DNA of 64,000 bases from assembly GCA_964639985.1 (NCBI GenBank), contig CAZXHG010000012.1:1254-65253 (forward strand). Direction: 5' to 3'. This stretch comes from an uncultured Rickettsiales bacterium (GTDB lineage Bacteria; Myxococcota_A; UBA796; UBA9615; CAYRNR01). How positions within the stretch are numbered: position 1 is the stretch's first letter; each line of letters opens with the position of its first letter. Made by a program: the position numbers and the translations under genes. Below are positions 1-59,331 of the stretch, piece by piece. Below the pieces are notes generated by a model. The model was not told the origin of the DNA. It searched no databases and saw only the letters and a program-made list of their open reading frames with translations.

Positions 1-2598
1 ATCGCTTCGGCGATGTTCGAGGGATTCAGCGGCGATATCAACGCCTCGCTGTGCAACAAGGGCCCCGGTGTCAAGGAGATCGGCACGAACCAGGAACGCG
101 TGGGGCGCTACGCGCGCATGGGGCGAGCCTCCCTGCGGTTCCCGGTCGAGCGCATCGTGGCCTACCTGCAGCACTACTTCTGCTATCACGCGACCCTGGA
201 TCTCGTGGAGGGCCACCTCTCCCGCACGGACAAGCTCGAGGTGCTCGTCGAGCGGTTCACGGCAGACGCCTCGTCCTATGTGCGGCGGAACTTCACCACG
301 CCGGCACCGATCACCTTCGAGCAGCTCGGAGACAACGACTTCGACACGCCGTTCGACAGCGAGATGAAGGACCGGATCAACGCTGTCATCGACTCCATCC
401 ACTCCAACCACACCCAGATCGAGAAGCAGCTTCTGGGGTTGACCGGCTGTCGCGGGGAGTCGGGGCTGGAGATCCAGATCGGGCTGGCCAGGGAGCTGTT
501 GATCCAGCTCGTCGAGACCAACGGCATCGAGTACGCCTTGGCGGCCATCGACAACCTCATCCAGCAACTCCACCTCCGCGGTGCGGCCGCCCGCGGCCGC
601 ATCGGCGGCGTCCCCGCGGACCTGGGGCGCGAGGAGCACGGTCCCGCGCTCGAGGCGTACATCGAAGAGCTCTACGGAGTCGATTCGCAGCCCTACCGGG
701 ACGGGTCCCACGCCGGGTTCGAGAACATCCGCAGCCGGCTCGAGGCCGACCGGAAATCCTGGGAGAAGAAGCGGAACTTCATGCAGAAGCTGCGGCTCGT
801 CGGGAATCCGCCGCGGACAATCACCCAGGATTCCCAGCGGGCCATCGAGAGCCTGAACACCGACTTCCAGCAGAACGTGGTCACCAAGCTGTGCACGGCG
901 CTGGCCGTGCAGTGCGAGATCCAGTTCAACCTGCGGTTCGAGAGTGAGCTGAGCGGCTTTGCTGCCAACCTCCGCCAGAGCCTCGAGACGCTGAGGTGCG
1001 ACGACGAGTACAACCAGGAATTCGGACTGATCCGGGACTACCGCCGCGCCATGGACGAGGTGGCCCTCCGGCCCATGAATCCCACGGACATCTACGTGGA
1101 CTGCAAGAGCCGCGCTGAATGCGAGGCCTTCGCGGATGACTTCCGTCAGCGGTACTCCGACATCGAATCGGTGCTGCAGGCCGTGGTGAACGATGGCGTG
1201 GTGCCGGGCATCCTCGACGGAGCGATCTCCGCGGAGACGGTCCGGCGGGTGCTGGAACCCGCGGTGAAGCGGCAGGTCGCGGACAACGCCAAGGGACTCA
1301 GCATCTCGCACTACTTCAAGAGACTGTTCGAGAGCAACAGACGCGAGCGGATCGACCACCTCTGGGAGATGCTCTACCGCACCGGCGGCTGGATGGGCAC
1401 GGTGGACATGGCTCGAGTGAAGGCCGAGAGCAAGGCCCAGTCGAGCTTCAAGAAATTCGAGTTCCTGGAGATGGCCGACCCCGATCTGTTCCAGCAGGTT
1501 CGAGGTTCAGCGGGGCAGAGCTTTGGCAACCAGGTTCGCGTGCACGGCGACCCCGAGCTACGTGAGACCATCGTGTTCACGCGCTACCAGTTCGAGCTGC
1601 CGCTGTTCGTGATCGACTCGATCTACAACACCTGGGAGCGATACGATTCGCTGGTCCGAGGGCACGACGAGGTCGACCAGGCCGCGGCCGTGCTCGCGAT
1701 GTACCATACATCCAAGGACTACTTCTATCTGGACGAGCCCCTCGCTCGGGTCACCCTCATCCCCGAGTCCGAGGAGTCCTGCACGATCAACCTGATGCTG
1801 CACCTGGGAGTGCTCTCCTCCGACTCCGAAGGAGTACTCGTCTGTCCTCCCCGTGCATCGCGAGGCGCGTCCACCGTCGGGCGCTGGCTCGAGGACGAGC
1901 ACGATTCATCCAGTGGCCTGCTGTTCGACGTCTACAGCCAGAACACCGCGGCCTATCCGGATCTGACGCAGCACCTGCTCAACCAGACGGCCGAGCGGTT
2001 GTTCGAGCTGGCCGATCCGACCGAGGACGCGTATCGGGACGAGATGCACCGTCACCTCGACGGCTACCTGGTGGACATCAAGTACCCGCTGGTGCCGCAG
2101 ACCCTGCTGGAGAACCGCCTGCGCCGGCGGTCGAACCAGCCCGGCTTCCAGAACTTCTTCACCCAGCGGAAGGACAAGTATGCGCGCAAGCTCGTCAAGG
2201 CCATGAAGAAGAGCAACCTGATCCAGCTGTATCGGTCAAGCGACGAGCTGGTCGCGGCCGGCTTCGCGGATCCGGCGGACCTGCACGCCTACTTCCTCAA
2301 CCCGCTGGTCTCGGGGCTGTCCCGCGGAGTGGTGAACACGACGATCGAGGAGGAGGACACGTCGGAGCCGTCGCTCGTCCCCCCGAAGCTGGACGACGAG
2401 CCCTCACCCGATGCCGTCCCTCCCAAATCGGTTGATGGTGAGCCTGATGGCCCTGAGACCGTCCCCCCCCCCATCAACGATGTGATCGAACAGCTGGAGC
2501 GCCTCGTGAAGCTCAAGGCGGCCGGTGAGCTCGACGAGGACTCGTTCCAGCTGATGAAGGCGAGTCTGATGCAGTCGCTCACGGGAGGCGCGTCCTGA
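1..2598 (+). CDS. Large hypothetical protein, 5' end probably outside the window, with a C-terminal SHOCT-like short oligomerisation motif
   Basis: ORF 13-2598 is open back to nt 1 in the same frame. C-terminus DVIEQLERLVKLKAAGELDEDSFQLMKASLMQSL fits the SHOCT pattern. TGA stop lies 1 nt before the ATG of the next gene. No other recognisable motif. Confidence 0.5.
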   Translation: MASAMFEGFSGDINASLCNKGPGVKEIGTNQERVGRYARMGRASLRFPVERIVAYLQHYFCYHATLDLVEGHLSRTDKLEVLVERFTADASSYVRRNFTTPAPITFEQLGDNDFDTPFDSEMKDRINAVIDSIHSNHTQIEKQLLGLTGCRGESGLEIQIGLARELLIQLVETNGIEYALAAIDNLIQQLHLRGAAARGRIGGVPADLGREEHGPALEAYIEELYGVDSQPYRDGSHAGFENIRSRLEADRKSWEKKRNFMQKLRLVGNPPRTITQDSQRAIESLNTDFQQNVVTKLCTALAVQCEIQFNLRFESELSGFAANLRQSLETLRCDDEYNQEFGLIRDYRRAMDEVALRPMNPTDIYVDCKSRAECEAFADDFRQRYSDIESVLQAVVNDGVVPGILDGAISAETVRRVLEPAVKRQVADNAKGLSISHYFKRLFESNRRERIDHLWEMLYRTGGWMGTVDMARVKAESKAQSSFKKFEFLEMADPDLFQQVRGSAGQSFGNQVRVHGDPELRETIVFTRYQFELPLFVIDSIYNTWERYDSLVRGHDEVDQAAAVLAMYHTSKDYFYLDEPLARVTLIPESEESCTINLMLHLGVLSSDSEGVLVCPPRASRGASTVGRWLEDEHDSSSGLLFDVYSQNTAAYPDLTQHLLNQTAERLFELADPTEDAYRDEMHRHLDGYLVDIKYPLVPQTLLENRLRRRSNQPGFQNFFTQRKDKYARKLVKAMKKSNLIQLYRSSDELVAAGFADPADLHAYFLNPLVSGLSRGVVNTTIEEEDTSEPSLVPPKLDDEPSPDAVPPKSVDGEPDGPETVPPPINDVIEQLERLVKLKAAGELDEDSFQLMKASLMQSLTGGAS

Positions 2599-2599
2599 C

Positions 2600-5500
2600 A
2601 TGGCGCGGAAGGGCACGCTTCGAGGGCGACATGCGGCGCGGCTGGCCGGGGGCGTGCTGTCCGTTGCAGCTCTCCTGCTGTTGCCCTGGCCTGCGACCGC
2701 TGCGGCCAGCCGCATCGCGATCGTGGTCGACAACTCGGGCAGCATGTACGGGAATTGCTCGCCTGGTCCCTGCGAGGACATCTCGCCCGATGTCAAGCAC
2801 GCCCTGCGGATCATCCTCGAGCTGACCGACGCCTACAACGCCGACAAGGCCGAGGCAGACCAGGTCGATGTCGTGCTGACCCTGTTCGGCGGCGCGAAAT
2901 CCAAGGACGACCCGGGACAGCCAGAATTCCAGGAGGTGGAGCTGTCCGGTGTTCTCTCCACGGACCTGACCACCCTCGAGCGTGAGATCCAGCGCGACAG
3001 GGGATACCACGGCACGGACTTCACCACGGGCTTCCGGGGGACGGCAGAGGCCCTCGCGCGCCGTGGCCGTGCGGACACGAGCATCTTCCTGACCGATGCC
3101 AGGAACCACGGCACGGGAGCTGCGGACGGGATCGATCTCACGCTGTTCGGCAGGACATACCTCTACGGTTTCCGGGCGGAGGCCCGGACCCTGGACCAGT
3201 GGGAGGGGTATTTCGAGGACCAGGGAGGCCACGCCGAGGTACACCCCCTCAGGTACGGCTGGCAGGTCAGCGATTCGTTCATCACCGTGTTCGTGAAGCT
3301 GCTGGCGTCCCAGGCCGGCCAGCGGTACCTCACGAGGCAGGCGCTCGAGGTCGGTCCGGGCAACGCCCAGGTCGATGTTCGCAAGCTTGGTGACGGGGCG
3401 GCGACGCTGTTCCTCGTACACGCGCAGGAAGCACTTCGCCTCTCCGGCGTCCAGCGTGGCGATCAGCCTGTGGACCCTTCCGCCTACACCAGCCGTTCGG
3501 GCACGAGCCTGTTGACGCTCCAGCTGGCGGAAGGTTCGGAAGCCGGGGTGTACTCGCTGCTGTTCGAGTCGCCGAAGCACTCGCAGGTCGTGACCGCCAT
3601 CCTCATCGACGGAGTGTCCCTCGTCCTCGTCGACCGGCTCCATCTGCCGGGGACCGCGGAAGAGCACAAGCGGAACGAGGAGGTCGGGTTCCACTTCGGC
3701 TTCGCGGCTGCCTCGGCTCCCGAGGGCGTCCTGCTCGACGCCGAGAGCGAACGGTCGTTCCTCGACCTGATCGACATCCGGATCGTCGCGTCGGAGAGCG
3801 AAGGAACGGACCTGTGGGACGTCGAGGATCCCGGGTCGTCATTGCAGCGGACCCACGTGTTCGCCCCCTCCGTCACCGGGGATTCCCGCTACGCCGTGCA
3901 GACCGGATGGAGCTACGTGTCGGCCGTGCCCGAAGCGAGCTTCCAGGCTGGCGAGTTCGTCCTGTCGGAGTTCCCCGCTCAGGAGCTGAGGCTCTCCTTC
4001 GCCTCGGATCGTGGCGCTGACATCTGGGAGGCCCGCGACGTGCGCGCCTCGGCCCGCTGGGTCGAGGGGCCGGATCCGATAAGGGACGAACACCTCAACG
4101 CACGCGAGATTCGACTCCGGCACGAATCCAGCGGTAGGGAATTCGTCCTCTCTCGGTCCGACGACGAGTCGCCCTACAGCGGAGACCTGGGGGGAGACCT
4201 CGGCCCCGGGACACACACCTTTGCCTTGCTGGCGCCGGATCCTGGCGAGACCCCCGGAATCGTGCTGACTGGCCGGGAACTCAAGATCCAGCCGCGAGCC
4301 ATCCGGGTCAACCTCCGCGAGACCTTTGCGCGAGAGGCCCTCCCCGAAGAGGAGAAGCTGATCGCGCGCATCCGCGCCGGGTTGAGGTTCCTGCTGGGCA
4401 AGGCCGGGGGAGAGACCGAGACGCGGGAGGTCGTGCTCGACTCATTCCCCCAGGAGCTGGAAGTGCTGCTGCTGTACTACGGTGCAGCGGAACACGAGCT
4501 GGTGTTCAGCCTCGAGATCGATCCCGTGTTCGAGGACGAGACGCCGACCGTGGGCGCCGCCCTCTCCGGCAACCGTGCGTTCGACGCCAGGGACGCCTGG
4601 CAGCCTCGCCTGTTCGGCCTCTCGCGGGGACGAAAGACGACGGTCGAGGACGCGCTGGCCATCGATCTGGACCCGGATCCTCCCGCGGGGACCCCTGGCC
4701 AGACCACCACGGTCAAGCTGGTGAAGGCCAACTGCGACTGGAACATCAAGATCCCGCTCGCGCCCGCCCCGGAGCTGACGTACGAGCCCGCTCTGGAGCG
4801 TGCGGGCGTGGTCCGGGAGCTGGAACCGGCCGTGATCCGGCTCAGCGTGAAGACGCGCCCGCTCGATCAACAGATCATCAACGCCCTGCGCAAGTCGGCC
4901 ATCACGGCGCTGCTCTTCATCGCCCTGTTGATCGTGCTGACCATCCTCGCCCTGCTGATGGCCTGGCGTGCCCGTGACGTGTCCAAGATGGAGGTCTGGA
5001 ACGACCTCCTCAAGCGAGCCCCCTGGGACTTCTGCCGCCGCGAGCTGGTGGGGACACACTTCCCCAAGGGGGCCTTCCGGCGGCTCGAGAAGTTCGTGGA
5101 GGATGAGCCCTCCGAGAAGCCGTACCAGCGGATGCGCAAGCTGATCACGAGCAGCGATCCTGCCGACCGGAAGGAGCTGCGCCGGCTTCGCTGGGCGTCG
5201 CGCAAGAGCGAACTCGAGGCCCTGCGCGCGCGCTGCAAGCAGCAGAACCTCAAGGCCTCGTGGGAGTTCGACCTGGCACCGTCCCAGTCCGTGGCCGTCT
5301 GCGGGACGGACGCCGATCAGGACGAGCGGGCCGTGCGGTTGCGAGACCGACGGCACCTCCGGTCCGACCAGGGCCGGGTCGCCCTGGTCTCGGAGAGGGG
5401 GAGGGGCGGCGCTGCCCCGCGGTATCTCGTCTCGTACCACCCCAGCGAGCACGTCACCTGCCGCGTGAAGGGGGGTGAGGTCGAGGTCCCGCCGCACCGG

Positions 5501-5623
5501 GGGCCGCTGGAGATCGAACCGGGGTCCTACGTCGACATCGGTCCGGATGCCGCCAATCTCAGGATCCGCCTCTCGGCGTCCTACATCGACGGTCGCATCA
5601 CGGTGACCACCACTCCGCTCTGA
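2600..5623 (+). CDS. von Willebrand factor A (vWA) domain protein: signal peptide, extracytoplasmic vWA domain, C-terminal TM helix and cytoplasmic tail
   Basis: N-terminal signal-like LAGGVLSVAALLLLPWPATAAAS. MIDAS DxSxS motif IAIVVDNSGSMYG with downstream T and D residues (TDFTTGF, LTDARNHG). TM helix ITALLFIALLIVLTILALLMAW near residue 770. GGGAGG SD upstream of ATG 2600. Confidence 0.7.
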   Translation: MARKGTLRGRHAARLAGGVLSVAALLLLPWPATAAASRIAIVVDNSGSMYGNCSPGPCEDISPDVKHALRIILELTDAYNADKAEADQVDVVLTLFGGAKSKDDPGQPEFQEVELSGVLSTDLTTLEREIQRDRGYHGTDFTTGFRGTAEALARRGRADTSIFLTDARNHGTGAADGIDLTLFGRTYLYGFRAEARTLDQWEGYFEDQGGHAEVHPLRYGWQVSDSFITVFVKLLASQAGQRYLTRQALEVGPGNAQVDVRKLGDGAATLFLVHAQEALRLSGVQRGDQPVDPSAYTSRSGTSLLTLQLAEGSEAGVYSLLFESPKHSQVVTAILIDGVSLVLVDRLHLPGTAEEHKRNEEVGFHFGFAAASAPEGVLLDAESERSFLDLIDIRIVASESEGTDLWDVEDPGSSLQRTHVFAPSVTGDSRYAVQTGWSYVSAVPEASFQAGEFVLSEFPAQELRLSFASDRGADIWEARDVRASARWVEGPDPIRDEHLNAREIRLRHESSGREFVLSRSDDESPYSGDLGGDLGPGTHTFALLAPDPGETPGIVLTGRELKIQPRAIRVNLRETFAREALPEEEKLIARIRAGLRFLLGKAGGETETREVVLDSFPQELEVLLLYYGAAEHELVFSLEIDPVFEDETPTVGAALSGNRAFDARDAWQPRLFGLSRGRKTTVEDALAIDLDPDPPAGTPGQTTTVKLVKANCDWNIKIPLAPAPELTYEPALERAGVVRELEPAVIRLSVKTRPLDQQIINALRKSAITALLFIALLIVLTILALLMAWRARDVSKMEVWNDLLKRAPWDFCRRELVGTHFPKGAFRRLEKFVEDEPSEKPYQRMRKLITSSDPADRKELRRLRWASRKSELEALRARCKQQNLKASWEFDLAPSQSVAVCGTDADQDERAVRLRDRRHLRSDQGRVALVSERGRGGAAPRYLVSYHPSEHVTCRVKGGEVEVPPHRGPLEIEPGSYVDIGPDAANLRIRLSASYIDGRITVTTTPL

Positions 5624-5643
5624 GCGATGGGAGGGACAGCACG

Positions 5644-8166
5644 ATGAGTGCTCTGCTGGACAACAGGTACAGGCTGACCATCATCGCCGTCCTCGTCGGC
5701 CTGCTCGTGCTGTGCCTGCTGCTCGCGGTGGCTCTGTACCGACCCTGGGACTTCCGGCAGCCTCCTGAGGACGAGGGCCTGACGACGGAAGATGTGCAGC
5801 AGGCCATCGACGAGCGGGGGTACGAGTGGACGGCCGAGGACAACAAGTTCACGGACATGAGTGAGGAGGAACGACAGCGCTGGCTCGGTGTGTTGCCATC
5901 GGATGATGAGGTGCCCGTCGGGGATGATGACGACTCCAGTGAGGGCGAAGGGACTCCCGACGGCGACGATGACGACTCCTCCGAACCACCCCCGAGTGCG
6001 AGCATGCTGCCCCCGGCCCGGGACGCCCCGCCTGCGCTGGACTTCCGGCCGCTGGCGTCGCCGATCCGGAATCAGGCGGGCTGCGGCAGCTGCTGGGCCT
6101 ACTCCGCGCTGAGTCCGGTCGAATCCAAGTACAACGAGGCATGCGAGGCCGTGGGGCGAGGGCAGGCCGATCTCTCGGAGCAGTACCTCCTGTCCTGCGA
6201 GGGGAGCTGCCGGGGCCACTTCATGGTCCCCACCTTCGAGTACATGGAGGACGAGGGCTTTCCGCGCGAGCCCTGCTGCCCCTATCGAGCGCTGGGGGCC
6301 CGGTCGTACTGCTCCACCTCGTGTGACCCGGGCGAGCTGTACCGGATCACCGGCTTCACCAAGCACCGCGGTCGACCCTGGCCCGGGTTGACGGGCAACC
6401 CGGGGCCAGCGAGTCAGGAGTGGATCGACGGCGTGAAGGAACTTCTGGTCGAGCACGGGCCGCTTTCGACCACGTTGAGGGTGCAGGCAGATTTCTGGCA
6501 TTTTGGCGACGGCGTGGGCAGCAACGGTGTCTACCGGTCGACCACGCCGGTGACGAACGGCTACCACGCCGTCGCGCTGCATGGATACGACACCGCAGGC
6601 CGGTACTGGATCGCACGCAACAGTTGGGGGGAGGACTGGGGCGAGGACGGTTACTTCCGGATCAGCTGGGACGACGAGTACTCCGCCTTCGGCGCGGAAA
6701 TGTACTCTGTCGAGGTGGACACATCGGGGAACCTGCCGTGCAGCACCCCGCCCCCGCCGCCTCCGCCCCCGGATCCCTGTTCGGAGCACGCGGCAGACCT
6801 GCCGCGAGGTGTGGAGTTCTCGGACACCACGAAGGAGGCCATCGCGGGCTTCGGAGAGTCCATCCGGGTTCCGTGTACGGAGGAGGGGGCACGGGAGATC
6901 CCTGGCCTGGACATCGAGGCCGTGATCGATGGCGGGCCCGGTGACCGGGACGCGGTCGCTCGCGCGACCCGGACCGACCTCGTCGTGAACGGTGGCTTGG
7001 CCGTGGAACTCGAGCCCGACGGTGAGGTCCTGCGAGGAACCCTGACGTGGAACGATGCGCTGGTGCCCGTCAACGACATGGTGTTCGAGTTGCGGTCTCG
7101 CTACCGGCCCGACCCGGCCGAGGAGGCATGGTGCTCGTTGCCTCCGGATTCCCAGGCCATCACCCTTCCGTCGGCGCTGGAGAGGACCTCGGCGTCGGTC
7201 GAGCCGCTCTCGACCCGCATGCGTGTGGAGGATGGCATGCTCGTCGGCGAGGTGAGCGTGCCCGTCGCCGACTACCTGGACTGGGCGGACGACTGTGCGG
7301 ACCTCGAGATCTCGCCGCGACTGTCCCTCCCCGATGACGGCGTTTTCGTGCTGGGATCGGTCGTCCCGGATACCATCGGGCTGGCGCAGGGTGACATCGA
7401 CATCACCCTCGAGGCCCTTCCCAGTCGAGAGGGTGCGAGGCTCGGCGAGGCGACGGTCGTGCTGGTCCTCCCGCCGCCTGCGGGCGCTGGGGATGTCGAA
7501 CCGATCGAGATCCCGGTCGACGTCCGCTGGAGTGTGGGCTACACGCAGTACATCCTGCTGGGTGCCGCGTTGGTGTGGATCATCGTTGCCACACTGATCA
7601 TCATCCACGCGACCACGGTGGACAAACGCAACTACTGGTATCGCTACCTGCGGCCGAGGTGGCCGGAGGACTTCCGGGGTGATCCCGACGCCTTCCGCGG
7701 TGACAGCCTGGACGTGTTCGAGTCGGAAGACGAGCTGATCGCGGCGTTCCGCAACCCGGCCTTGCCGGTGATGATGAAGTTCCTGCGGCGGCAGCGCTGG
7801 AAGGACCTGCGCGCCCTGTTCGAGCGTTGTCGTCGGTCGTTCCCCGGTCCCCTGGTCTTCCCGAGGAACGGTGGCGCCGTGGAGCTGTCATCGACCACCG
7901 GGGGAGACCGGGTGTACCGCACGCGAATCCGCGAACTGCCCGGGCCGTTTGCCCGCATCGTGGACGACGGTTCGTCGGATGCGCCTTATCTGATGCCCCT
8001 GGAGGGGTACTTCGAGGATGTCGAGGGGCGGTTCCTGCAGCGGCGCACGCCCGTGCCGCTCGAGGGACAGCTCCAATTCAGGGTGGGGCTGTCCTCGGCC
8101 AACGTGGCTCTGATCAGCGTCGCAGTGGGGACGGATGTGATCACGGTGACGTGTACGGCGTTGTGA
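5644..8166 (+). CDS. Membrane-anchored papain-like cysteine peptidase (family C1) with poly-Pro linker, second TM helix and cytoplasmic tail
   Basis: N-terminal TM IIAVLVGLLVLCLLLAVALY. Catalytic Cys motif NQAGCGSCWAYSAL, His in GYHAVALHGYD, Asn/Trp in YWIARNSWGEDWGEDGYFRI. Linker PPPPPPPPDP. Second TM YILLGAALVWIIVATLIIIHA. GGGAGGG SD upstream. Confidence 0.75.
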   Translation: MSALLDNRYRLTIIAVLVGLLVLCLLLAVALYRPWDFRQPPEDEGLTTEDVQQAIDERGYEWTAEDNKFTDMSEEERQRWLGVLPSDDEVPVGDDDDSSEGEGTPDGDDDDSSEPPPSASMLPPARDAPPALDFRPLASPIRNQAGCGSCWAYSALSPVESKYNEACEAVGRGQADLSEQYLLSCEGSCRGHFMVPTFEYMEDEGFPREPCCPYRALGARSYCSTSCDPGELYRITGFTKHRGRPWPGLTGNPGPASQEWIDGVKELLVEHGPLSTTLRVQADFWHFGDGVGSNGVYRSTTPVTNGYHAVALHGYDTAGRYWIARNSWGEDWGEDGYFRISWDDEYSAFGAEMYSVEVDTSGNLPCSTPPPPPPPPDPCSEHAADLPRGVEFSDTTKEAIAGFGESIRVPCTEEGAREIPGLDIEAVIDGGPGDRDAVARATRTDLVVNGGLAVELEPDGEVLRGTLTWNDALVPVNDMVFELRSRYRPDPAEEAWCSLPPDSQAITLPSALERTSASVEPLSTRMRVEDGMLVGEVSVPVADYLDWADDCADLEISPRLSLPDDGVFVLGSVVPDTIGLAQGDIDITLEALPSREGARLGEATVVLVLPPPAGAGDVEPIEIPVDVRWSVGYTQYILLGAALVWIIVATLIIIHATTVDKRNYWYRYLRPRWPEDFRGDPDAFRGDSLDVFESEDELIAAFRNPALPVMMKFLRRQRWKDLRALFERCRRSFPGPLVFPRNGGAVELSSTTGGDRVYRTRIRELPGPFARIVDDGSSDAPYLMPLEGYFEDVEGRFLQRRTPVPLEGQLQFRVGLSSANVALISVAVGTDVITVTCTAL

Positions 8167-8244
8167 GCTGTGCGGTTCGCGGCAGGTGAACAGGCGGGGG
8201 GCCGGGATCGGGCGGAGGTCCGCCGGGAGGAGGGGAGCACACGC

Positions 8245-11200
8245 ATGAACAAGATCGTTGTAGCGGCCTGCCTGGTCTTCGTTTGCTCGTGCTTCGCCGT
8301 CGAGGTCCGTGCGGCCGATCTGTACCGGATTGCGGAGATCGTCGTTCGCGGTGAACCGAGGGACAGCTCCGACGCTGCCATCGTACTGGAGGGGGCGGAG
8401 GAAGTCGAAATCCACGTCGGTATGGAGCTGTATGGCGGCGACACGATCCGTGTCTGGGTGCCGGGCGTGCGTGTTCGGCTGGTTGGGGACGGTGGGGACA
8501 CGTTCGCCGTGGAGCACGGCCGAGATGGCCCGGCCGACTACACGGTCGGCGAGCCCGATAGTTGCTGGCAACGAGCGGGGAAGGTGACGTACGGCGTCTT
8601 CGAGCGAGCTGCGGAGACCTTCGAGTGCCTCGTCGGTCCAGAAGATCGGGCGATCCCGCTGGGGGTCGAGGGGACCCGCTTTTCGGTCGACGTACTCGAC
8701 AATGGACTGGAGGTGACGGTCGCCGACGGTGTGGTCGTCGTTGGTGAACCGGGGTCCCCGCTTCATCGACGGATCGAGAACGGCCGCTTGCTCCGGGTGC
8801 AGGGAGACGACCTGATCGAGGAGGAGGTCGACCGGGAGACGGTGGTCCGCGTTCGTGACTCGCTCGTGGAGGTGACCGTTCGCGAGACCGAGGGCGACGC
8901 GACCGGTTTTATCCTCCTGGGTGACAAGGGGGGATTCGAGCGACGGACCGTGGAGACGGTGCGCGTCGTGCGGTCGACCTTCGGCAATCCGGACAAGAGC
9001 GTGCACGCTGGTGACACTCTGGAACGCTACAGGCAAGAAGGGGTTCCGGGCGTCGACGCGTTCTCTGCGACGGAACTGTGGACCCTCGCTGATGCGCTGT
9101 TCGAGCAGGGGGACTTCGGCACCGCCCTGGAGATCTACACCCGAGCGCATGATTTCCATACGGGCGACGACGCAGGCAGAGCCAGGCTGAAGGCGAACCT
9201 GGGCATCTGCGCGCTCGAGTTGGGCGACTTGCAGGTGGCGGAGCAGCATCTCCTGGCGGCTGATGAGGTGGTCGCCGATGATTACACGGTTCTGGCAGCC
9301 CTGGTCGATCTCTACCAGGACCGCCGCAATCCGCGGCTCCGGCAGGCCAACGAGTTCATGGATCGCCTGCTGGCCGTGAGGGGGCGCAGTGCCCTGGAGT
9401 GCCGGATGGCCGGCCGGCAAGCCCTGGATCTGTGGAGGTTCGAGGAGGCCGCCGTCCTGTACGAGGAGGCGGCCAGCCATTACCAGGCGGTGGAGGATCG
9501 GCACGGGCTGATCTGGTCCTGGATCGGACTGGGTGATGCCGTTCGGGATGTCGGGCGATACGACGACGCTACGAGGTACTACCAGCGAGCTTGCGATCTG
9601 GCGGACAACACGGAGTGCGGATCGGAGGTCTCCGAGGAGATGGCTCGCGACGAGCTCGTGGCCCACGAGAGGATGGGGACGGTGCTCTGCTACCAGGGCA
9701 GGACCCGGGAAGGGCTGGAGCACTACCGTCTGGCCCTGGCCATCCAGCAGCAGGTCGTAGCGGCGGATCCAGACCGCGCGAAGCTGAGCCGGGAACTCAT
9801 GATCTCGTACGAGAACATGGGAGATGTACTTGCCGACCTTGGCGAGACGCAGCAGGCGCTGGAGTACTATGAAATCGCGGAGGACATCGCGGACCTAAGG
9901 TACCGGATTGTCCTTGCGTCGGAACTTGCCTGTCTCCGCCAAGAGGAGCGGACCGATGGGACAAAATTCAGCAGGAAGCGGAAGATCGATCCGCCTACGC
10001 CGGAGCTCAGGGCCCGGACTGGTAGGGACGCGTCACGTCTATTACGGAAGTCCGCCTCCGTCCACCAATCTCTGGGCCTGACGGAGGAGGCGATAGAGCG
10101 CCGCAGCTTGTCGCTGGAGATCATGCAGTGGCTGGCTTCCAGGGCGCCTGACGATGTGAAGACCCAGCTGGGGCTGGGGGCCGCGCACCTCGAACTGGGC
10201 AACACACTCGGACGGGCGGGCGACAGTGAGGGTTCGCTGGCCCACCACCGCTCGGCGCTGCAAATCACCCAGCAGCTGGTCCAGCAAGACCCCTGCGTGG
10301 ATCTGTTGCATGCACGACTCGCTACGCACCTCATGGCAACGGCCGATGTGATGGCCGAACTGGGTATGTCCGACGAGGCTCTCGAACACTACGAACGGTG
10401 TCTGGAGATCCGAGAGAGGCTGTCCGCGGCGTCTCCTCATCAGACAGGTCGTCTGGCACGGTTGGCCAACACGCACAGCGACATCGGCATCGCGAAGAGC
10501 AATGTCGGGCTGATGGATGCGGCACTGGATCACTATCGAAGGGCGATCGAAATCCGGCAGGGCCTGGCGGCGGTGGAGCCGGAACGAACCGACTTCCAGC
10601 TTTCACTCGCCCATGCTCATCGAGCCCTCGGCACCGCCCTGGAGCAGAAGGGCAGGACGAATGAGGCCCTGGTGCACTATCAACTCAGCCTGGAGGTCAC
10701 CGCGAGTCTGGTGGAGACGGAGCCGGAGCGGTCCGACTTCCAGGGCGCACTGGCCAGGTCGGCCATGAAGGTTGGCTGGGTACACGAGGTTCAGGGGGAA
10801 TCCCAGGCAGCTCTGGAACAGTACCTCCGTGCTCTCGAGATTCGCGGGCGACTGGTCGAATCCTCGCCTAGCAGGCAGGACTACAAGGAAGCGCTGGCCA
10901 GCGCTCACTGCAGTGTCGGTGAGGGTCATTTTCCCCAGGGATTGTACGAGGAGGGAATCTCGCACCTCAAGCACGCGCTGGCACTCCGCCAAGCGGTTGT
11001 GGATGCAGACCCGTTGAACACCGACTCGCAGCGAGTGCTAGCGGTCTCCCATGGCTTGCTCGGTTACCGCTTGGAAGACTTGGGCGAGGAGACGGCTGCT
11101 CTTACCCACTACCACAGCAGCGCGGGCATCCTAGCTCGCTTGGCCGAAGCCGAGCCAGATCGACGGGATTTCCAGTACGATCTAGCCATCTCTCTGGGGC

Positions 11201-12060
11201 AGATCGGGTACATCCTTCGTTGTCGAGGAGAGCTGGATGAAGCCCTGGGCCAATACGGACGTGCGCTGACGATTCGTGAGCGGCTCGTGAGCGACGAGCC
11301 GGATCGGCTCCGCAACCAAGTCCGGCTGACGATCTCGTACGAGGCCATCGGCGAGCTACACGAGATCGGGGGCGACCTGGAAACAGCGCTCGAACACTAC
11401 CTTCGTGCCCTGTCGATCCGTGAGGGCTTGGTCGAAGCGGAACCAGCCCGGACGGATCTCCAGTGGCGAGTCTCGCAGGTCGAGCAGAGGATCGGAAACC
11501 TCCAGGAGTCCATCGGGGACCGCGAGCTGGCCCTGGGGCATCACGGTCGAGGGCTCGCCATTCTCCAGGCGCTCACCCAGGCCGAGCCAGATCGGACAGA
11601 CTTCAAGGGGGATCTGGCATGGTTGCTTGCGGACATCTCCGCCGTGCAGGACCCGGAATCTGGTGAGGCGAGCCTGGCCAAGGCGGTGGCGATCAGCGGC
11701 CAGATCGTTGCGGCCGGCGGTGCCCCTCCAGCTATCCAACTGCGTCACGGCCACTACCTGCTCCTCGCAGGACGCCTGGAGGAGGCCCGCGAGCACATGG
11801 AGAGCCTGTACCAGCGCACTCCCGAGACAAACGCGATTCATGGTCAACTGGCTGGTCAGCTCGCCGTCTTGAACCTGCTCGAGGGGAACCTCGATCGCGT
11901 GTCGGACTACATGCAGCCGCTGGAGGACGAGCCCGTCATCCGCTGGCAGCTCGTCAGACAGCTTGCCCAGATGCGCCGGCGGGGGTTCCCTGACGAGGGT
12001 TTCGCGCAGTTCGAGGCGCAGCTGCTGGGCCTGGGGCCCTTGCCGACCTTCTCCGACTAG
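8245..12060 (+). CDS. Secreted FecR-like / tetratricopeptide-repeat (TPR) protein
   Basis: Probable true start ATG 8245 (MNKIVVAACLVFVCSCFAVEVRA signal peptide, GGAGG SD ~10 nt upstream); the ORF opens at 8170. N-terminal FecR-like beta region. Then >20 degenerate TPR-like 34-aa repeats (recurring Y-x-x-A-L-x-I and ALEHY motifs). Confidence 0.7.
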   Translation: MNKIVVAACLVFVCSCFAVEVRAADLYRIAEIVVRGEPRDSSDAAIVLEGAEEVEIHVGMELYGGDTIRVWVPGVRVRLVGDGGDTFAVEHGRDGPADYTVGEPDSCWQRAGKVTYGVFERAAETFECLVGPEDRAIPLGVEGTRFSVDVLDNGLEVTVADGVVVVGEPGSPLHRRIENGRLLRVQGDDLIEEEVDRETVVRVRDSLVEVTVRETEGDATGFILLGDKGGFERRTVETVRVVRSTFGNPDKSVHAGDTLERYRQEGVPGVDAFSATELWTLADALFEQGDFGTALEIYTRAHDFHTGDDAGRARLKANLGICALELGDLQVAEQHLLAADEVVADDYTVLAALVDLYQDRRNPRLRQANEFMDRLLAVRGRSALECRMAGRQALDLWRFEEAAVLYEEAASHYQAVEDRHGLIWSWIGLGDAVRDVGRYDDATRYYQRACDLADNTECGSEVSEEMARDELVAHERMGTVLCYQGRTREGLEHYRLALAIQQQVVAADPDRAKLSRELMISYENMGDVLADLGETQQALEYYEIAEDIADLRYRIVLASELACLRQEERTDGTKFSRKRKIDPPTPELRARTGRDASRLLRKSASVHQSLGLTEEAIERRSLSLEIMQWLASRAPDDVKTQLGLGAAHLELGNTLGRAGDSEGSLAHHRSALQITQQLVQQDPCVDLLHARLATHLMATADVMAELGMSDEALEHYERCLEIRERLSAASPHQTGRLARLANTHSDIGIAKSNVGLMDAALDHYRRAIEIRQGLAAVEPERTDFQLSLAHAHRALGTALEQKGRTNEALVHYQLSLEVTASLVETEPERSDFQGALARSAMKVGWVHEVQGESQAALEQYLRALEIRGRLVESSPSRQDYKEALASAHCSVGEGHFPQGLYEEGISHLKHALALRQAVVDADPLNTDSQRVLAVSHGLLGYRLEDLGEETAALTHYHSSAGILARLAEAEPDRRDFQYDLAISLGQIGYILRCRGELDEALGQYGRALTIRERLVSDEPDRLRNQVRLTISYEAIGELHEIGGDLETALEHYLRALSIREGLVEAEPARTDLQWRVSQVEQRIGNLQESIGDRELALGHHGRGLAILQALTQAEPDRTDFKGDLAWLLADISAVQDPESGEASLAKAVAISGQIVAAGGAPPAIQLRHGHYLLLAGRLEEAREHMESLYQRTPETNAIHGQLAGQLAVLNLLEGNLDRVSDYMQPLEDEPVIRWQLVRQLAQMRRRGFPDEGFAQFEAQLLGLGPLPTFSD

Positions 12061-12100: not shown

Positions 12101-14041
12101 CTACTCCCTCGTGTGTCCTTGCTCCTCCAGCCAGGCGGCGAGCCTGTCCAGGTAGTCGACACAGCCCCGTACCAGCGTGCGCTGCAGCGCGATCCGGCTC
12201 GCCGCGGTCGAGGCCTCGGGCTCGCCGCAACAGGCGCGAAGTGCATCGTGCCCCAGACGTGCGGCGTGGGGCTTGATCGCGCTGTGGGCCCACAGGTTGC
12301 GGATTCGGCGTAGAGCCGTACCGCAGAACGTCTCGCACAGCTCGTCCGCCTTTGCGACGGGCGCCTCGTCCCGTTCACGGCTGCCTCCGGGAGACTCTCC
12401 AGCGCCATGACCCGAGCTGCGGGTCCCCGCTTCGCCAGCCGTGGGCTCGAGCCAGCCGTGCTGCGCGAAGAACATCCGGGGGATGGCCTGCTGAAAGGTC
12501 CTGCCCGCGCGATCCTCGACCAGGGCGGCGTGCAGGCCGGAGACCACTGCGATGATGCCCTTGCGGTCGACCGCCGGGGAGGCGAGCACCTGGAACAGGC
12601 AATCCGGTCCCCCGGGGGGCAATCGGACCAGGGCTGACGAACCCTGTTGCCGTGTGAGATCGTCCACGCGAACCAGCGCATCCACCAGGCGGCGGGCGCG
12701 CCGGCGAACGGGCAGCCCCAGCAGGGACCATGAGAGCGCTGCCGCGAGTGCTGCGGCAATCACACCGGCCACCGGGTACACCACCGGTGAGGTCCATGTG
12801 GCGGCCACCGCCGCGATCACCATCCCCACACCCAGCAGCTGCGGCCATGGCCAGATGTGCATCACCGCCTCGAGCACGGATGCGGGTCGCGCAGAGGCGT
12901 AGATCTCGGGGAGCGAGCCTCTGCGTCGCGCCATCAGCGCCGGTGGCAAGGACGCCAAGACAGCCGCGACCACGATCAGGAGCAGCGACCAGGCTCCCGC
13001 CCGGCGGACGTAGGACCTGGCCTGCAGCTGGTTGAACGCGGCTGCCTGGACGAACACCCCGTAGGTGTCCCTCGCTGTACAGCCGTCCTCGACGCAGGTG
13101 AGTTGCCCCTCGGGCACGAACGGCAGCTGCCACACGTCGCTGGCCGCCCAGCGGCCGACCAGGCCGACGAACACGGTCCGTCCCCGGATATCCTCGATCA
13201 ACTTCTCGGGCTCGGCCAGCAGCACGTGGCTGTGGGGCAACACCCGGTGAGCGCGTCGAGGGTACCGGATCAGCAGCTCCGCACCGGTGGGGAGACCCGG
13301 GGGGGCGACGACCCGCCCCCATTCGGCGGTGGCCGGTGACCTCGTCTCCGCCAGCGAGAATGCCTGCAGGAAGAGGGAGGGTGCGGGCTGTCCGCCCAGC
13401 TCACCCAGCAGCGCCGTGGACGCCAGGAGGCCGGTTCGGCTGTCACGCCTCGCGTCCAGGATCGCCGCGTGGCTTCGCCCGGACTCGTAGAGCGCGTGCG
13501 GCGGCGCCCCCTGGTGCGTTCCGAGGACCACGGGCACGCCAGCGGCGGCAGCGCGATCGAGGGCTGCGATGAATTCGGTGGTCCGATCGGGGGCCGCGTC
13601 GGTGAAGTACATGTCGAAGGCAACGCACGCCGGTTCCGCGAGGACGAGCTGGTCGAGCAGGCGTGCGTGGAGCGCGCGCCAGGCGAGCGGGTCCTCGTCG
13701 AAGTCCGGGATGGGGATCGGACCCGCCGGCCCGGCCCGGACCGCCTGCGACGTCAGTACGCCCCTGTCCTCCTCGGACAGGGTGACGACCACGGCGCCGC
13801 CCAGGTCATCGATGCTCATGAACCGTTGCCGCGCAGCGTGGATCGAACTCTCCAGGGGGCGGGCAGCCACGGCTCCCGCGAGCGAGAGCGGAATGATCAG
13901 CAGGCCGAGCTTGACGTGGGGGTGCACGGTGCTGTCCCCTCCTGGGATCCAGTCGGTTTGAGAAGCCGTGGTGTCGAAGCACCGCGCATCACATGGCCAC
14001 CCCGATGCAGACGAACATCGCCAATACGCCGAACCAGACAA
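12101..14041 (-). CDS. CHASE2-like extracytoplasmic sensor membrane protein with short cytoplasmic C-terminal region
   Basis: N-terminal signal/TM HVKLGLLIIPLSLAGAVAA; a likelier start is the internal GTG near 13927. CHASE2-like features: VAFDMYF, TVFVGL, TCVEDGCTARDTYGVFVQAAAFNQL. Then 3-4 TM helices (WSLLLIVVAAVLASL, LLGVGMVIAAVAATW, VAGVIAAALAAALSW). Last gene of the long - strand array. Confidence 0.45.
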   Translation of the reverse strand: MSGSAYWRCSSASGWPCDARCFDTTASQTDWIPGGDSTVHPHVKLGLLIIPLSLAGAVAARPLESSIHAARQRFMSIDDLGGAVVVTLSEEDRGVLTSQAVRAGPAGPIPIPDFDEDPLAWRALHARLLDQLVLAEPACVAFDMYFTDAAPDRTTEFIAALDRAAAAGVPVVLGTHQGAPPHALYESGRSHAAILDARRDSRTGLLASTALLGELGGQPAPSLFLQAFSLAETRSPATAEWGRVVAPPGLPTGAELLIRYPRRAHRVLPHSHVLLAEPEKLIEDIRGRTVFVGLVGRWAASDVWQLPFVPEGQLTCVEDGCTARDTYGVFVQAAAFNQLQARSYVRRAGAWSLLLIVVAAVLASLPPALMARRRGSLPEIYASARPASVLEAVMHIWPWPQLLGVGMVIAAVAATWTSPVVYPVAGVIAAALAAALSWSLLGLPVRRRARRLVDALVRVDDLTRQQGSSALVRLPPGGPDCLFQVLASPAVDRKGIIAVVSGLHAALVEDRAGRTFQQAIPRMFFAQHGWLEPTAGEAGTRSSGHGAGESPGGSRERDEAPVAKADELCETFCGTALRRIRNLWAHSAIKPHAARLGHDALRACCGEPEASTAASRIALQRTLVRGCVDYLDRLAAWLEEQGHTRE

Positions 14042-14945
14042 GTGCCAGCCAGGCGGCAGCCGGGAGCAACTGGTTTTCGTGAAGGGCTGCCGCGCCGTCG
14101 GGCAGTGGCGCAGACGCGGCAGGCAGGTACGGTCTCAGCATCACGGATCCCATGGCCAGGTGCCTCACCCACCGGACCAGGACCGCCTCCACGAAGGCGA
14201 TCGCGATGCCCGCGGCGATCGACAGCACGAACACCAGCGTACTCGCGTGGTCCAGGATTTCCATGGGAGAGTGACCCTTCTCGAACAGCTCGTTCCAGCC
14301 CAGGATCCAGTCCGTCCACTCCAGCGCGGAATCGAGCACGCCGCCGCCGAGCATGGCGCCTGCACCCATGCCCAGGACGTCGCCCACCGCACCCAGGCCG
14401 CACAGCAGGACCGCGTATCCCACCACACCGATGCACCCGCAGCCCGTCCCCCCCGTGGCACAGCCCGCGCGCAGGTCGCCGGATTCCTCGGCCACGGCCA
14501 GCCCGCCCGCGATGCCCAGGGCCACGGCGACCACCGCGGGCAGGACGAATGACAACCAGATCACCACTTGGACGACGAAGGCCACCACCAGCACGACCAG
14601 CCACACGATCCAGCAGACCAGCGCCACCACCCACGAGGCCAGGTATCCGAGCACGAACAGGACGAACATCAAGGCTGCGGGAAGGAACACCACGAGCAGG
14701 GTGATCCCGGCCAGCTCGACATTGACGAGCAACTCGCCCCGGAACGTCTCCCTCGGTCTGATCGCAAGCCCGAGCACAGGCCCCACGGCCATGGGCAGCA
14801 GGATCACCGCCGTCCACCCGAGAAGCAGTGCGTCGAAACCGTCCAGGCTGAGAACGCACTCCCAGCCCATCCAGACCAGTCCCGTGACCACGACCACGGC
14901 GGTGATCAGGGCCAGCGTCCTCCGACGTGTCCAGGACCATTTCAC
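13989..14945 (-). CDS. Polytopic integral membrane protein, paralog A (about 8 TM helices), unknown function
   Basis: Highly hydrophobic 318 aa. Motif RPRETFRGELLVNVELAGITLL. C-terminal LRPYLPAASAPLPDGAAALHENQ. About 35% identical by eye to the 15270-16175 product. Confidence 0.55.
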   Translation of the reverse strand: MKWSWTRRRTLALITAVVVVTGLVWMGWECVLSLDGFDALLLGWTAVILLPMAVGPVLGLAIRPRETFRGELLVNVELAGITLLVVFLPAALMFVLFVLGYLASWVVALVCWIVWLVVLVVAFVVQVVIWLSFVLPAVVAVALGIAGGLAVAEESGDLRAGCATGGTGCGCIGVVGYAVLLCGLGAVGDVLGMGAGAMLGGGVLDSALEWTDWILGWNELFEKGHSPMEILDHASTLVFVLSIAAGIAIAFVEAVLVRWVRHLAMGSVMLRPYLPAASAPLPDGAAALHENQLLPAAAWLALVWFGVLAMFVCIGVAM

Positions 14946-14985
14946 GGTGTCGAGCAGACCTCCTCGGGCCGTCGCGCGAGCACGC

Positions 14986-15273
14986 TCATCCGCGTATGTG
15001 CAGCTCGACCGGCCTCACGCAGCGCGTGATCAGCAGCGCCGCGATCGCGATTGGATACAGCATCCAGTAGGCGCCCCAGAGCATCGCGAAGGCCCCGAAC
15101 GCGATGGGCAGTCCCCACCACGGGTGGCGCACGGCAAAGCGATCGATGCCGTGCTGGACCAGATGCACCTCGTAGTTGCCGCGGCGGAGAGCGAGCGAGA
15201 CGAGATCGAAGGACGTCTGCACGCCGAACCCGTCGATGATCGAACGATGGTCCTCTTGGTCGGATGCGCTCAT
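14986..15273 (-). CDS. Small membrane protein (~95 aa), translationally coupled to the upstream membrane protein
   Basis: Internal start MSASDQEDHRSIIDGF... of ORF 14986-15966. Its ATG overlaps the TGA of gene 15270-16175 (ATGA). C-terminal hydrophobic helices WWGLPIAFGAFAMLWGAYWMLYPIAIAALLI. Confidence 0.4.
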   Translation of the reverse strand: MSASDQEDHRSIIDGFGVQTSFDLVSLALRRGNYEVHLVQHGIDRFAVRHPWWGLPIAFGAFAMLWGAYWMLYPIAIAALLITRCVRPVELHIRG

Positions 15274-16175
15274 GCCTCTCCCCAGGTGGAAACGATGACC
15301 GTGGCCAGCGTGGCCGACCACACGAGCATCAGCCAGGCGGTCGCAGGAATGGACTGACGTTCGTCCAGCACGCTGACGCCATCGGGCAGCGGGGCGGATG
15401 CAGACGGCAGGAAGGGACGCAACCACAGCAACCGCATCATCGCGAGTCGCGCCCACCGCGACGACAGCGCCGCCGTGAAGGCGAGGGTCACGCCCAGTCC
15501 AGCGGTACACATCGCCGAGAAGATGGCGTGGTGGTTTGCCCTCGCGATGGTGCCCCTCATGAAATCGAACAGGAACCCCCACTCGGGTATCCAGCCCGTC
15601 CACTGGCGCGCGGCCACCACCACGTGTCCGTTGAAGGCATCCAGCCAGTGGCTGTCGAGGGAGGCCGTGACCCGGTGGGTGACAAGTGCGAGTAGCACAA
15701 CCCCGACGAGCGTGACCACGACGCCAATCCAGGGTTCCCCGGACCCATCCGATGCCAGGAACCCCGCCACGACGGAGCCGATGGCGGCCGCGTAGACCAG
15801 CAGCTGCAGCACCAGGGCGAGCAGCAGGACGATGATCCAGAACAGCCAGCAGGCAGCAACGGCGACGATCGAGCTGCCGTAGGTGAGCGCATAGACGACG
15901 AGGCCCAGCGCCCCTGGAGCGAAGATGGCCAGCAACGCCAGCTGCAGCAGCTCGAGGTTGACCCACGCCTCGCCGCGCACGGTCTCTCGGGGCCTCATGC
16001 TCAGCCCCATCAGCGCTCCGACGCCGGCGAGCGACACGACGATGCCGACGCCGATGCGGGGCGACATCATTCCCCCGCGGAGGTGATTCTCCAGGACGAG
16101 CCAGCCCATGCCCCCGCTCACGACGAGGATCGTCAGGATCGCCCAGTCGCGGTGGGAGGTGTGCCGGACGTTCAT
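15270..16175 (-). CDS. Polytopic integral membrane protein, paralog B
   Basis: 301 aa, about 8 TM helices. Motif RPRETVRGEAWVNLELLQLALL. C-terminal LRPFLPSASAPLPDGVSVLDERQ. Paralogous to 13989-14945. 4-nt overlap with upstream gene 16172-19105. Confidence 0.55.
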   Translation of the reverse strand: MNVRHTSHRDWAILTILVVSGGMGWLVLENHLRGGMMSPRIGVGIVVSLAGVGALMGLSMRPRETVRGEAWVNLELLQLALLAIFAPGALGLVVYALTYGSSIVAVAACWLFWIIVLLLALVLQLLVYAAAIGSVVAGFLASDGSGEPWIGVVVTLVGVVLLALVTHRVTASLDSHWLDAFNGHVVVAARQWTGWIPEWGFLFDFMRGTIARANHHAIFSAMCTAGLGVTLAFTAALSSRWARLAMMRLLWLRPFLPSASAPLPDGVSVLDERQSIPATAWLMLVWSATLATVIVSTWGEA

Positions 16176-19105: not shown

Positions 19106-19109
19106 GCGA

Positions 19110-19946: not shown

Positions 19947-19948
19947 CG

Positions 19949-21600: not shown

Positions 21601-21616
21601 GCCTCCCTCGCGCGGT

Positions 21617-25200: not shown

Positions 25201-25273
25201 CTCGATTCCTTTCCTGACCGGCCAGGGGGGCGAGCGATGGGCCGCTCCGGGCAAGTCCGCCCCAGCATGGGTA

Positions 25274-38341: not shown

Positions 38342-38609
38342 CGGGATTTCTCGGACAGGAGGATTCAGATCTCTTCCAGGTCGCCCTAGCGACGAGGGTT
38401 GCGCGCAGCATACATCGGGCTGGTGCGGGTTGCATCCAGCGCTGATCGACCCCCTCGAATCCCGCTCTCCCCCCGAGGAGTCGACGTCTGTTCTCCGGTA
38501 TACTGCCGCGGGCGAGGTGCGTGGGCGAGGGGCAGCCGTGGCCACGGTTGGCCGGATGCCGGAGCCTCAACCCCAGTGCCTCTCGTCAGGCGGGCGGATA
38601 CTACCGACG

Positions 38610-43174: not shown

Positions 43175-43177
43175 CCG

Positions 43178-47282: not shown

Positions 47283-47286
47283 CGAT

Positions 47287-53857: not shown

Positions 53858-53870
53858 CGGAGACCCTCCC

Positions 53871-56975: not shown

Positions 56976-56989
56976 CTCGCCGATGCGGA

Positions 56990-59327: not shown

Positions 59328-59331
59328 CCGG

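Follow-up and report, generated by a model that had tools for sequence, protein, structure and literature searches.

The FtsZl1 (FtsZ-like 1) family was defined by Makarova and Koonin (2010; PMC2875224), who found its genes associated with those for vWA and OmpA-like proteins, kinases and a novel GTPase, and proposed a function in membrane remodelling. The family, which has been equated with Tubulin_2 (PMC9871819), is the most divergent tubulin/FtsZ branch, and a second hypothesis, incompatible with the first, arose when Kaur, Burroughs, Iyer and Aravind (2020; PMC7159879) reinterpreted tubulin/vWA/GTPase neighbourhoods as biological conflict systems. Additional file 5 of Makarova and Koonin lists 56 FtsZl1 neighbourhoods, with eight kinases, four TPR proteins, three FHA proteins and one C1-type cysteine protease (COG4870, in Bacteroides caccae); in the main text the words 'protease' and 'FHA' have 0 occurrences each, and neither a tail fusion nor a partnership with a C1 peptidase is described (PMC2875224). 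Here we analyse a gene cluster at the start of a 64,000-nt stretch of DNA, hereafter the window, from an uncultured Rickettsiales bacterium placed in Myxococcota_A by GTDB (contig CAZXHG010000012.1). The cluster is a rare, three-gene variant of the known FtsZl1-vWA operons, encoding an FtsZl1 protein, a single-pass vWA membrane protein and a membrane-anchored papain-like (C1) peptidase. What appears distinctive is a cytoplasmic tail of predicted FHA fold on both surface proteins, together with a C1 protease, active as judged by its motifs, as a constant member.

Compared with the operons described previously (PMC2875224), the locus is alike in that an FtsZl1 of about 1100–1200 amino acids is encoded beside a vWA protein that is secreted or membrane-bound and keeps its metal ion-dependent adhesion site (MIDAS) intact. 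It differs in gene order, since the vWA gene usually precedes FtsZl1 in those operons and follows it here, and in content, the OmpA, MotA, GTPase and kinase genes found there all being absent from the cluster. A further difference is the putative FHA-fold tail fused to the vWA and C1 proteins. An initial annotation, made from the window sequence alone, had regarded an outward-facing protease paired with a vWA protein and a TPR protein as an unusual combination. It is not unprecedented, being a subtype of the FtsZl1-vWA operons, among whose tabulated neighbours FHA, TPR and cysteine protease genes already occur (PMC2875224). A literature search found no description of FHA-fold tails on both surface proteins or of a constant C1 protease.

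Identity of the first gene and conservation of the gene order

The window begins with four genes on the + strand, all co-directional, the last of which ends at position 12060; there the run stops, because the next gene (12101–14041, − strand) is convergent. The intergenic spacings are 1, 20 and 78 nt, given that gene 4 most likely starts at the ATG at 8245, so that the common direction noted initially stands, while the range of 1 to 20 nt proposed for the spacings fails at the third gap. An exact-match look-up of the vWA protein retrieved JGI and ENA metagenome contigs of the same organism (L001–L005) that extend 5' of the window. Eight further loci (L006–L013) were obtained from scans and look-ups, with alignment-based scans contributing one genome and three metagenome loci; a single-sequence scan of genome contigs with the FtsZl1 protein found no relatives.

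Gene 1 is truncated by the window start, as its frame stays open back to base 1, with no stop codon before base 13. The window holds its 3' part (1–2598, + strand, 865 codons), and the complete gene of 1198 codons is present on L001 (L001:320-3916), starting 998 nt upstream of the window. The full-length protein matched Pfam Tubulin_2 (PF13809) over amino acids 9–395 with E=4e-31 and 109 bits (cutoff 27), identifying it as a tubulin-like GTPase of the FtsZl1/Tubulin_2 family. Its nucleotide-binding loops T1 (GLGGTGH; GGTG) and T4 (SLGGGTGRG; GGGTGRG) are invariant across four orthologs. A Pfam search of the window-encoded part alone found no Tubulin_2 domain, which lies outside the window, and for that reason the initial annotation could not recognise the protein and described it as SHOCT-tailed. 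The description missed the identity of the protein: the window encodes the C-terminal two thirds of a 1198-amino-acid FtsZl1 that ends in a SHOCT-like helix (2473–2571, + strand). The match to SHOCT (PF09851; E=5e-4, 20.1 bits) falls under the gathering cutoff of 27 and covers only the last ~30 amino acids; the helix pattern L..L...G.I.eeE/F...K is kept in L007, L008, L009 and L013. Preceding the helix is an acidic, proline-rich and presumably disordered linker (2347–2472, + strand), and the orthologs have a comparable linker of low conservation. The L009 ortholog carries two SHOCT-like helices at its C-terminus instead of one (L009:9600-9875). PDB searches with the sequence and with a profile returned no relevant solved relative of FtsZl1, and a 16.6-bit match to a TetR-type regulator was dismissed as chance.

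The gene set was found in five deep lineages, represented by the window, by L006, L007 and L011 (probably with L008), by L009, by L010 and L013, and by L012, which share at most 41% identity and range in GC content from 39 to 66%. FtsZl1 lies directly upstream of the vWA gene wherever the junction is visible (window, L006, L007, L008, L009 and L011); in L013 the upstream open reading frame (ORF) is visible only as a SHOCT-like C-terminal fragment. The junction consists of a 1-nt gap in the window, L007 and L011 and of a 4-nt overlap in L009, which suggests translational coupling. The C1 gene lies directly downstream of the vWA gene in all five lineages (window, L006, L009, L010, L011, L012 and L013). 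The conserved unit is therefore FtsZl1, vWA and C1, in that order. A trio of vWA, C1 and TPR genes, which the initial annotation had put forward as the functional unit, did not hold up, because the TPR gene is confined to the window lineage. Upstream of the module in L009, a contig of a metagenome-assembled genome, are genes resembling those for type II secretion pseudopilins (L009:575-2115; weak T2SSJ, T2SSK and N_methyl matches) and a divergent gene for a sigma-70 region-4 protein. With such pseudopilin-like genes the L009 host is probably diderm, and the module therefore seems to cross cell-envelope types.

Two surface proteins with homologous cytoplasmic tails

The vWA gene (2600–5623, + strand) begins 1 nt past the FtsZl1 stop codon and encodes a single-pass membrane protein of 1007 amino acids. 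A predicted signal peptide (amino acids 1–36; 2600–2707), ending in ATAAAS, consists of a hydrophobic stretch after four to five Lys/Arg residues, and amino acids 1–35 were modelled with low confidence by AlphaFold2. It is followed by an extracytoplasmic vWA domain (amino acids 38–238; 2711–3313) that has the alpha/beta vWA fold and an intact MIDAS (DxSxS...T...D), whose residues D44, S46, S48, T139 and D166 are invariant in five orthologs. With Pfam VWA_2 the window protein scores 14.1 bits (E=0.073), short of the gathering score of 27, but VWA_2 matched four of the five vWA orthologs, at best with E=0.0012; a PDB sequence search with the vWA profile returned no relevant relative. The stalk (amino acids 242–752; 3323–4855) comprises about five beta-sandwich domains according to AlphaFold2 secondary structure, modelled with a predicted local distance difference test score (pLDDT) of mostly 70–90, and two orthologs gave weak TIG matches there. 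A transmembrane (TM) helix (amino acids 767–789; 4898–4966; hydropathy 3.13), lying within a continuous AlphaFold2 helix of amino acids 754–804, leads into a C-terminal cytoplasmic tail of 218 amino acids. Hydropathy and charge distribution agree with this predicted topology of an extracytoplasmic domain, one C-terminal TM helix and a cytoplasmic tail, which is the arrangement first proposed for the protein.

The C1 gene (5644–8166, + strand) follows the vWA gene and encodes a membrane-anchored peptidase of 840 amino acids. In addition to the C-terminal TM helix already recognised (amino acids 636–654; 7549–7605; hydropathy 2.77, followed by Lys/Arg), which had been taken to be the only one, the protein has an N-terminal TM helix or signal-anchor (amino acids 13–31; 5680–5736; hydropathy 3.35), conserved in the orthologs, after a conserved R(H)RYT motif. 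Beyond this lies a 24-amino-acid segment, GYEWTAEDNKFTDMSEEERQRWLG (5818–5889), that is kept in all six C1-type sequences; it may resemble the end of an I29-type propeptide and is possibly a remnant of one, and a Pfam search of the peptidase found no I29 match. The catalytic domain (amino acids 129–345; 6028–6678) matched Peptidase_C1 with E=3.4e-36 and 125.8 bits (cutoff 20.7). All the papain motifs are present, namely Gln144 and Cys150 (CGSCW; 6070–6096), His308 (YHAV; 6559–6579) and Asn326 (NSWG; 6616–6630), and in an alignment to human DPP1 (structure 3pdf; E=3.7e-21) the motifs of Cys150, His308 and Asn326 have their counterparts. The papain identity, for which a misalignment of Cys, His and Asn had been named in advance as the refuting result, thus holds. 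Every ortholog whose sequence extends to the four catalytic residues has kept them, which supports a peptidase that is catalytically intact and, by its predicted topology, outward-facing. Immediately past the first TM helix, amino acids 32–39 (5737–5760) include the residues Y-R-P-W-D-F (YSPWLF or YPYNRF in orthologs). This segment resembles the PWDF/PEDF motif of the tails, yet would lie on the outer side of the membrane by the predicted topology. The cytoplasmic tail (amino acids 655–840; 7606–8163; 186 amino acids) contains the motifs WPEDF (7660–7674) and VYRTR (7912–7926).

The ectodomains of the vWA and C1 proteins are strongly acidic (net charge −42 and −70, respectively). The tails were initially described as basic and of about 190–230 amino acids; as cytoplasmic domains they stand, at 218 and 186 amino acids, but they are only mildly basic, with net charges of +8 and +2.

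Comparison of the two tails gave a BLASTP match of E=0.001 with 28% identity over 154 amino acids, and a Smith–Waterman score of 59 against 31.2±4.9 for shuffled sequences, a score reached by 0 of 2000 shuffles. Profiles built from the vWA-type and C1-type tail orthologs aligned in hhalign over 178 columns with a probability of 97.3% and E=2.7e-11. By these alignments, homology between the two tails spans each of them entirely, some 185–215 amino acids; the similarity originally noted in the last strand was borne out by formal alignment, its absence having been named as refuting, and extends to the whole tail. That the genes are unrelated neighbours whose tails resemble each other through compositional bias or a generic beta-strand could be argued from the pairwise BLASTP value, which is only E=0.001, but is extremely improbable in view of the shuffled scores, the profile–profile comparison and the synteny in five deep lineages; on the same three grounds a chance adjacency of the genes was excluded.

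A two-tail profile searched against 1.84 billion cluster representatives recovered only 11 clusters, all of them either vWA-type (about 980–1007 amino acids) or C1-type (about 708–846 amino acids), and in every one the tail forms the very C-terminus, with a TM helix preceding it. The search assigned the C1 tail to the same family as the vWA tail with E=8e-84. It was this exhaustive search that detected the family: a word-index protein search gave no match for either tail alone, the query's own protein included, and self only for an alignment of five vWA tails, and as that search misses the query's own full-length protein from a tail fragment of 216–253 amino acids, its negatives are uninformative for the tail family. 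The tail has no family model in Pfam or NCBIfam, and the latter likewise lacks models for FtsZl1, vWA and C1. A hidden Markov model (HMM) of the 11 sequences matched no other ORF in the window or the loci.

Identity to the window vWA tail is 25–27% for other vWA-type tails and 18–21% for C1-type tails, indicating that the tail duplication is old and that both copies were retained in every lineage. A recent duplication or gene conversion within the operon was rejected, the two types forming separate subfamilies in all lineages with 18–21% identity between them. Common to both subfamilies are a juxtamembrane PxDF motif, a helix with L..L...C, a VRxR strand and a Gly near the end; in tail numbering, P19, D21, F22, L83, L86 and C90 are conserved in both, and two arginines, R124 and R126, are invariant.

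An AlphaFold2 model of the tail, based on the 11-sequence alignment (pLDDT 91.2; predicted template modelling score 0.83), has six helices (tail residues 2–91) followed by nine strands (97–217). Each tail is accordingly modelled as a helical bundle joined to a beta-sandwich, which was judged to correspond to the 11-strand FHA fold. In the vWA protein the helical half (amino acids 790–881; 4967–5242), as modelled, carries W..L...PWDF and the L..L..RC helix, and the predicted FHA-fold half (amino acids 886–1006; 5255–5617) carries the invariant VRLR (5330–5347). A Foldseek search with the model returned nothing significant, the only match with a probability above 0.5 being the Dun1 FHA domain (E=0.078). 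None of the 11 tails gave a Pfam match to FHA or Yop-YscD_cpl at E up to 10, and a PDB sequence search with the tail profile found no relevant relative and no FHA domain.

FHA domains that bind phosphothreonine have three motifs: GR, which follows strand 3, and SxxH and NG, which precede strands 5 and 7, respectively (PMC3162421). The beta-domain of the 11 tails has no invariant Ser, His or Asn, and the G-R position is G-S/T in vWA-type tails and deleted in C1-type tails (register assigned by eye). In that register the tails appear to have the FHA fold without the GR, SxxH and NG motifs. There is precedent for such a fold in single-pass components of trans-envelope machines, MxiG-N and EssC-N being FHA folds in which these residues are missing or phosphothreonine is not bound (PMC3162421, PMC4925161). 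In the type III secretion protein SctD (MxiG-N, YscD, PrgH) and in EssC/YukB of type VII secretion, however, the FHA domain is N-terminal and its partner is the sorting platform or an ATPase, whereas here it would be C-terminal, after a helical bundle, with presumably the tubulin-like protein as partner. SctD and EssC FHA domains share 6–13% identity with the tails, which gives no sign of a sequence relationship. In Sulfolobus, ArnA (FHA) and ArnB (vWA) are separate soluble cytoplasmic proteins, while both folds would here be in one polypeptide and on opposite sides of the membrane.

The tails might also be conventional FHA domains, reading a phosphorylation mark that Ser/Thr kinases place on FtsZl1 or another target. 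We consider this very unlikely. It would suit the invariant R124 and R126, the several kinases and the PP2C phosphatase encoded in the window, and the position of Ser/Thr kinases as the most frequent non-vWA neighbours of FtsZl1 (8/56 neighbourhoods; PMC2875224), but at every locus the module and its immediate neighbours are free of kinase and phosphatase genes, the GR, SxxH and NG motifs as defined in PMC3162421 are absent, and Pfam FHA did not match even at E=10.

Proposed docking to FtsZl1 and candidate roles

Phospho-independent docking of the tails to FtsZl1 is the simplest model, since no other portion of either surface protein is cytoplasmic and the module contains no cytoplasmic protein besides FtsZl1. 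The model draws support from the apparent translational coupling of FtsZl1 and vWA, from the retention of both tails in every lineage and from the FHA folds of secretion machines. We put the chance that the tails are phospho-independent docking modules tethering the vWA and C1 proteins to an FtsZl1 assembly at about even. Of the shared cytoplasmic docking module suggested initially, the homologous domain after the TM helix was found in both protein families and in five lineages, and docking is what we infer from it. The module would then comprise a cytoplasmic FtsZl1, a surface vWA domain with MIDAS on a stalk of about five beta-sandwiches and an active papain-like protease at the surface, the two surface proteins being docked through their paralogous FHA-fold tails to an FtsZl1 assembly under the membrane. 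Ligand binding by the vWA protein and proteolysis by C1, both at the cell surface, would in this way be linked to the GTP-dependent state of FtsZl1, and the protease would act on a substrate bound by the vWA protein or on the vWA protein itself. Surface remodelling, adhesion and conflict are candidate biological roles.

Several points weigh against such docking. The link between tails and FtsZl1 is a putative one, the set of tail and FtsZl1 sequences is too small for covariation analysis, and other binding targets are conceivable for the tails, namely one another, the membrane or a partner encoded elsewhere. The positions of the GR, SxxH and NG motifs were mapped by eye from the alignment and the secondary structure of the model and not by superposition. 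Polymerisation of FtsZl1 is hypothetical, and T6-H7 elements were not identifiable by Makarova and Koonin (PMC2875224). In L007 the module is without C1, and its vWA gene is disrupted by an insertion sequence (IS) element, a ~2.6-kb insertion (L007:5537-8186) with a helix-turn-helix ORF and a transposase of the Mutator/MULE family; a lipoprotein-like ORF follows. With the vWA gene split and the C1 gene missing, the module appears to be decaying there.

Membrane remodelling or vesicle formation, in which the membrane would be deformed by filaments of FtsZl1, with the membrane proteins as mere anchors or cargo, is the published proposal for FtsZl1-vWA operons (Makarova and Koonin, 2010; PMC2875224). 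For the present variant it seems distinctly unlikely: the OmpA, MotA/TolQ and GTPase components behind the hypothesis are absent from the module, filament formation by FtsZl1 is itself hypothetical (PMC2875224), and the conserved extracellular protease and intact MIDAS would be left unexplained. Two single-pass anchors would nevertheless fit, by analogy, a role like that of FtsA and ZipA for FtsZ.

An anti-invader system for biological conflict, as understood by Kaur et al. (2020), in which the vWA protein would sense an invader peptide, the tubulin-like NTPase set a multimerisation threshold and the protease serve as effector, is unlikely as well, though somewhat less so. The GAP1-N2 tubulin systems described by these authors likewise contain a tubulin-family protein with a C-terminal helical extension and membrane proteins in which an extracellular vWA domain is combined with uncharacterised beta-rich domains (PMC7159879), and the membrane-bound vWA and beta-rich proteins of those neighbourhoods speak for the comparison. 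So do the sporadic and very rare occurrence of the module in genomes of very different GC, the decay of one locus through IS insertion (L007), and the kinase–FGE-sulfatase fusion and AAA/STAND-like genes within the same window. Those systems are, however, from Firmicutes and Actinobacteria and have a defining GAP1-N2 GTPase and a component with fibronectin type III repeats, neither of which was found here, and neither a C1 peptidase nor paired FHA tails are described for them (PMC7159879). The four genes, like the flanking sequence visible in L007, L009 and L011, gave no P-loop GTPase domain, and the operon and its visible flanks hold no GAP1-type GTPase, HSP70 or effector-associated domain component. 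In PADLOC-DB 2.0 there was no match for FtsZl1 (window part), vWA or C1, and gene 4 matched a generic TPR model only. An outward-facing effector would moreover be unusual for the logic of abortive infection, and phage and plasmid collections yielded no relatives: tblastn searches of plasmids with FtsZl1 and with vWA gave no match, and viral contig scans found no relative. In these plasmid and viral scans no sign of a mobile-element or phage origin was seen.

Docking of both tails to FtsZl1 also allows a more far-reaching reading, which we regard as improbable, of an integrin-like device for outside-in and inside-out signalling. It would consist of a MIDAS head, a stalk, one TM helix, an FHA-type tail and a polymer of the tubulin-like GTPase, and the polymer would activate or position the co-docked protease. 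Integrins serve as an analogy only, with nothing beyond the vWA fold indicating common descent; their short peptide tail is connected to actin via talin, whereas the tail here is a folded domain of some 200 amino acids with a presumed tubulin-like partner. Were this reading true, the FtsZl1 branch of the tubulins would for the first time have a physical mechanism, and the FHA fold would be newly used, independently of phosphothreonine, as a cytoskeleton adaptor.

With three conserved genes and, in its two paralogous tails, a candidate for a concrete physical link, the variant is unusually simple. If the tails bind FtsZl1, it would offer an accessible system for studying how binding and proteolysis outside the cytoplasm are connected to a prokaryotic tubulin-like GTPase, and the helix-plus-FHA tail would define a new domain family.

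The TPR gene and other features of the window

The fourth gene (8245–12060, + strand) encodes a putative secreted TPR protein of 1271 amino acids, in which a signal peptide and a beta-rich N-terminal region precede the TPR repeats. The ATG at 8245 is its most likely start, being preceded by a strong Shine–Dalgarno sequence, GGGAGGAGGGGAG, and placing the signal peptide at the N-terminus. Of its first description as a FecR/TPR protein, the TPR part was confirmed (TPR_12, E=5e-54) and the FecR part was not: FecR (PF04773) matched only 26 residues with E=0.21 and 12.5 bits (cutoff 24), and a PDB sequence search found nothing relevant. A FecR identity of the N-terminus was consequently not retained. 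The gene follows C1 only in the window lineage; 3' of C1 there is a convergent CvpA gene in L010 and a lipoprotein-like ORF in L011. As the TPR gene is not downstream of C1 in either of these loci, it was rejected as a conserved component of the module, and it may be a lineage-specific add-on or an unrelated neighbour. The convergent gene at 12101–14041 (− strand), with 40 nt between the two stop codons, encodes a CHASE2-domain protein of 646 amino acids. FecR-domain periplasmic proteins are operon partners of CHASE2 sensor kinases (PMC5192318), and the TPR protein may belong with the CHASE2 gene if its N-terminus is really FecR-like, a label that the searches above did not support.

From 14000 to 25300 (− strand) there is a long run of large ORFs with good coding signal and mostly without a Pfam match, for example an ORF of 977 amino acids at 16172–19105; a gene at 21617–23548 (− strand) encodes an AAA ATPase with weak STAND-like matches. 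An island of lower GC content at 38399–46224 (+ strand; 57–61%, against 65–70% for most of the window) holds three genes, encoding a fusion of a NodU/CmcH-type carbamoyltransferase with a protein kinase (1591 amino acids), then a 671-amino-acid protein without a Pfam match and a ParA/MinD-like ATPase. Two radical-SAM proteins, one of them with a B12-binding domain, are encoded at 46254–50326 (− strand) near an S-adenosylmethionine-decarboxylase-like protein.

A Ser/Thr kinase, a fusion of FtsW/RodA with a transpeptidase (1227 amino acids) and a PP2C phosphatase are encoded at 51755–58438 (− strand), a cluster that recalls the actinobacterial pknB-pbpA-rodA-pstP region. No FHA match came from the next two ORFs (58440–60087). 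Further downstream, a gene at 60171–62780 (+ strand) encodes an 869-amino-acid fusion of a protein kinase with an FGE-sulfatase (formylglycine-generating enzyme-like) domain, a domain highlighted in conflict systems of multicellular bacteria (Kaur et al., 2020; PMC7159879).

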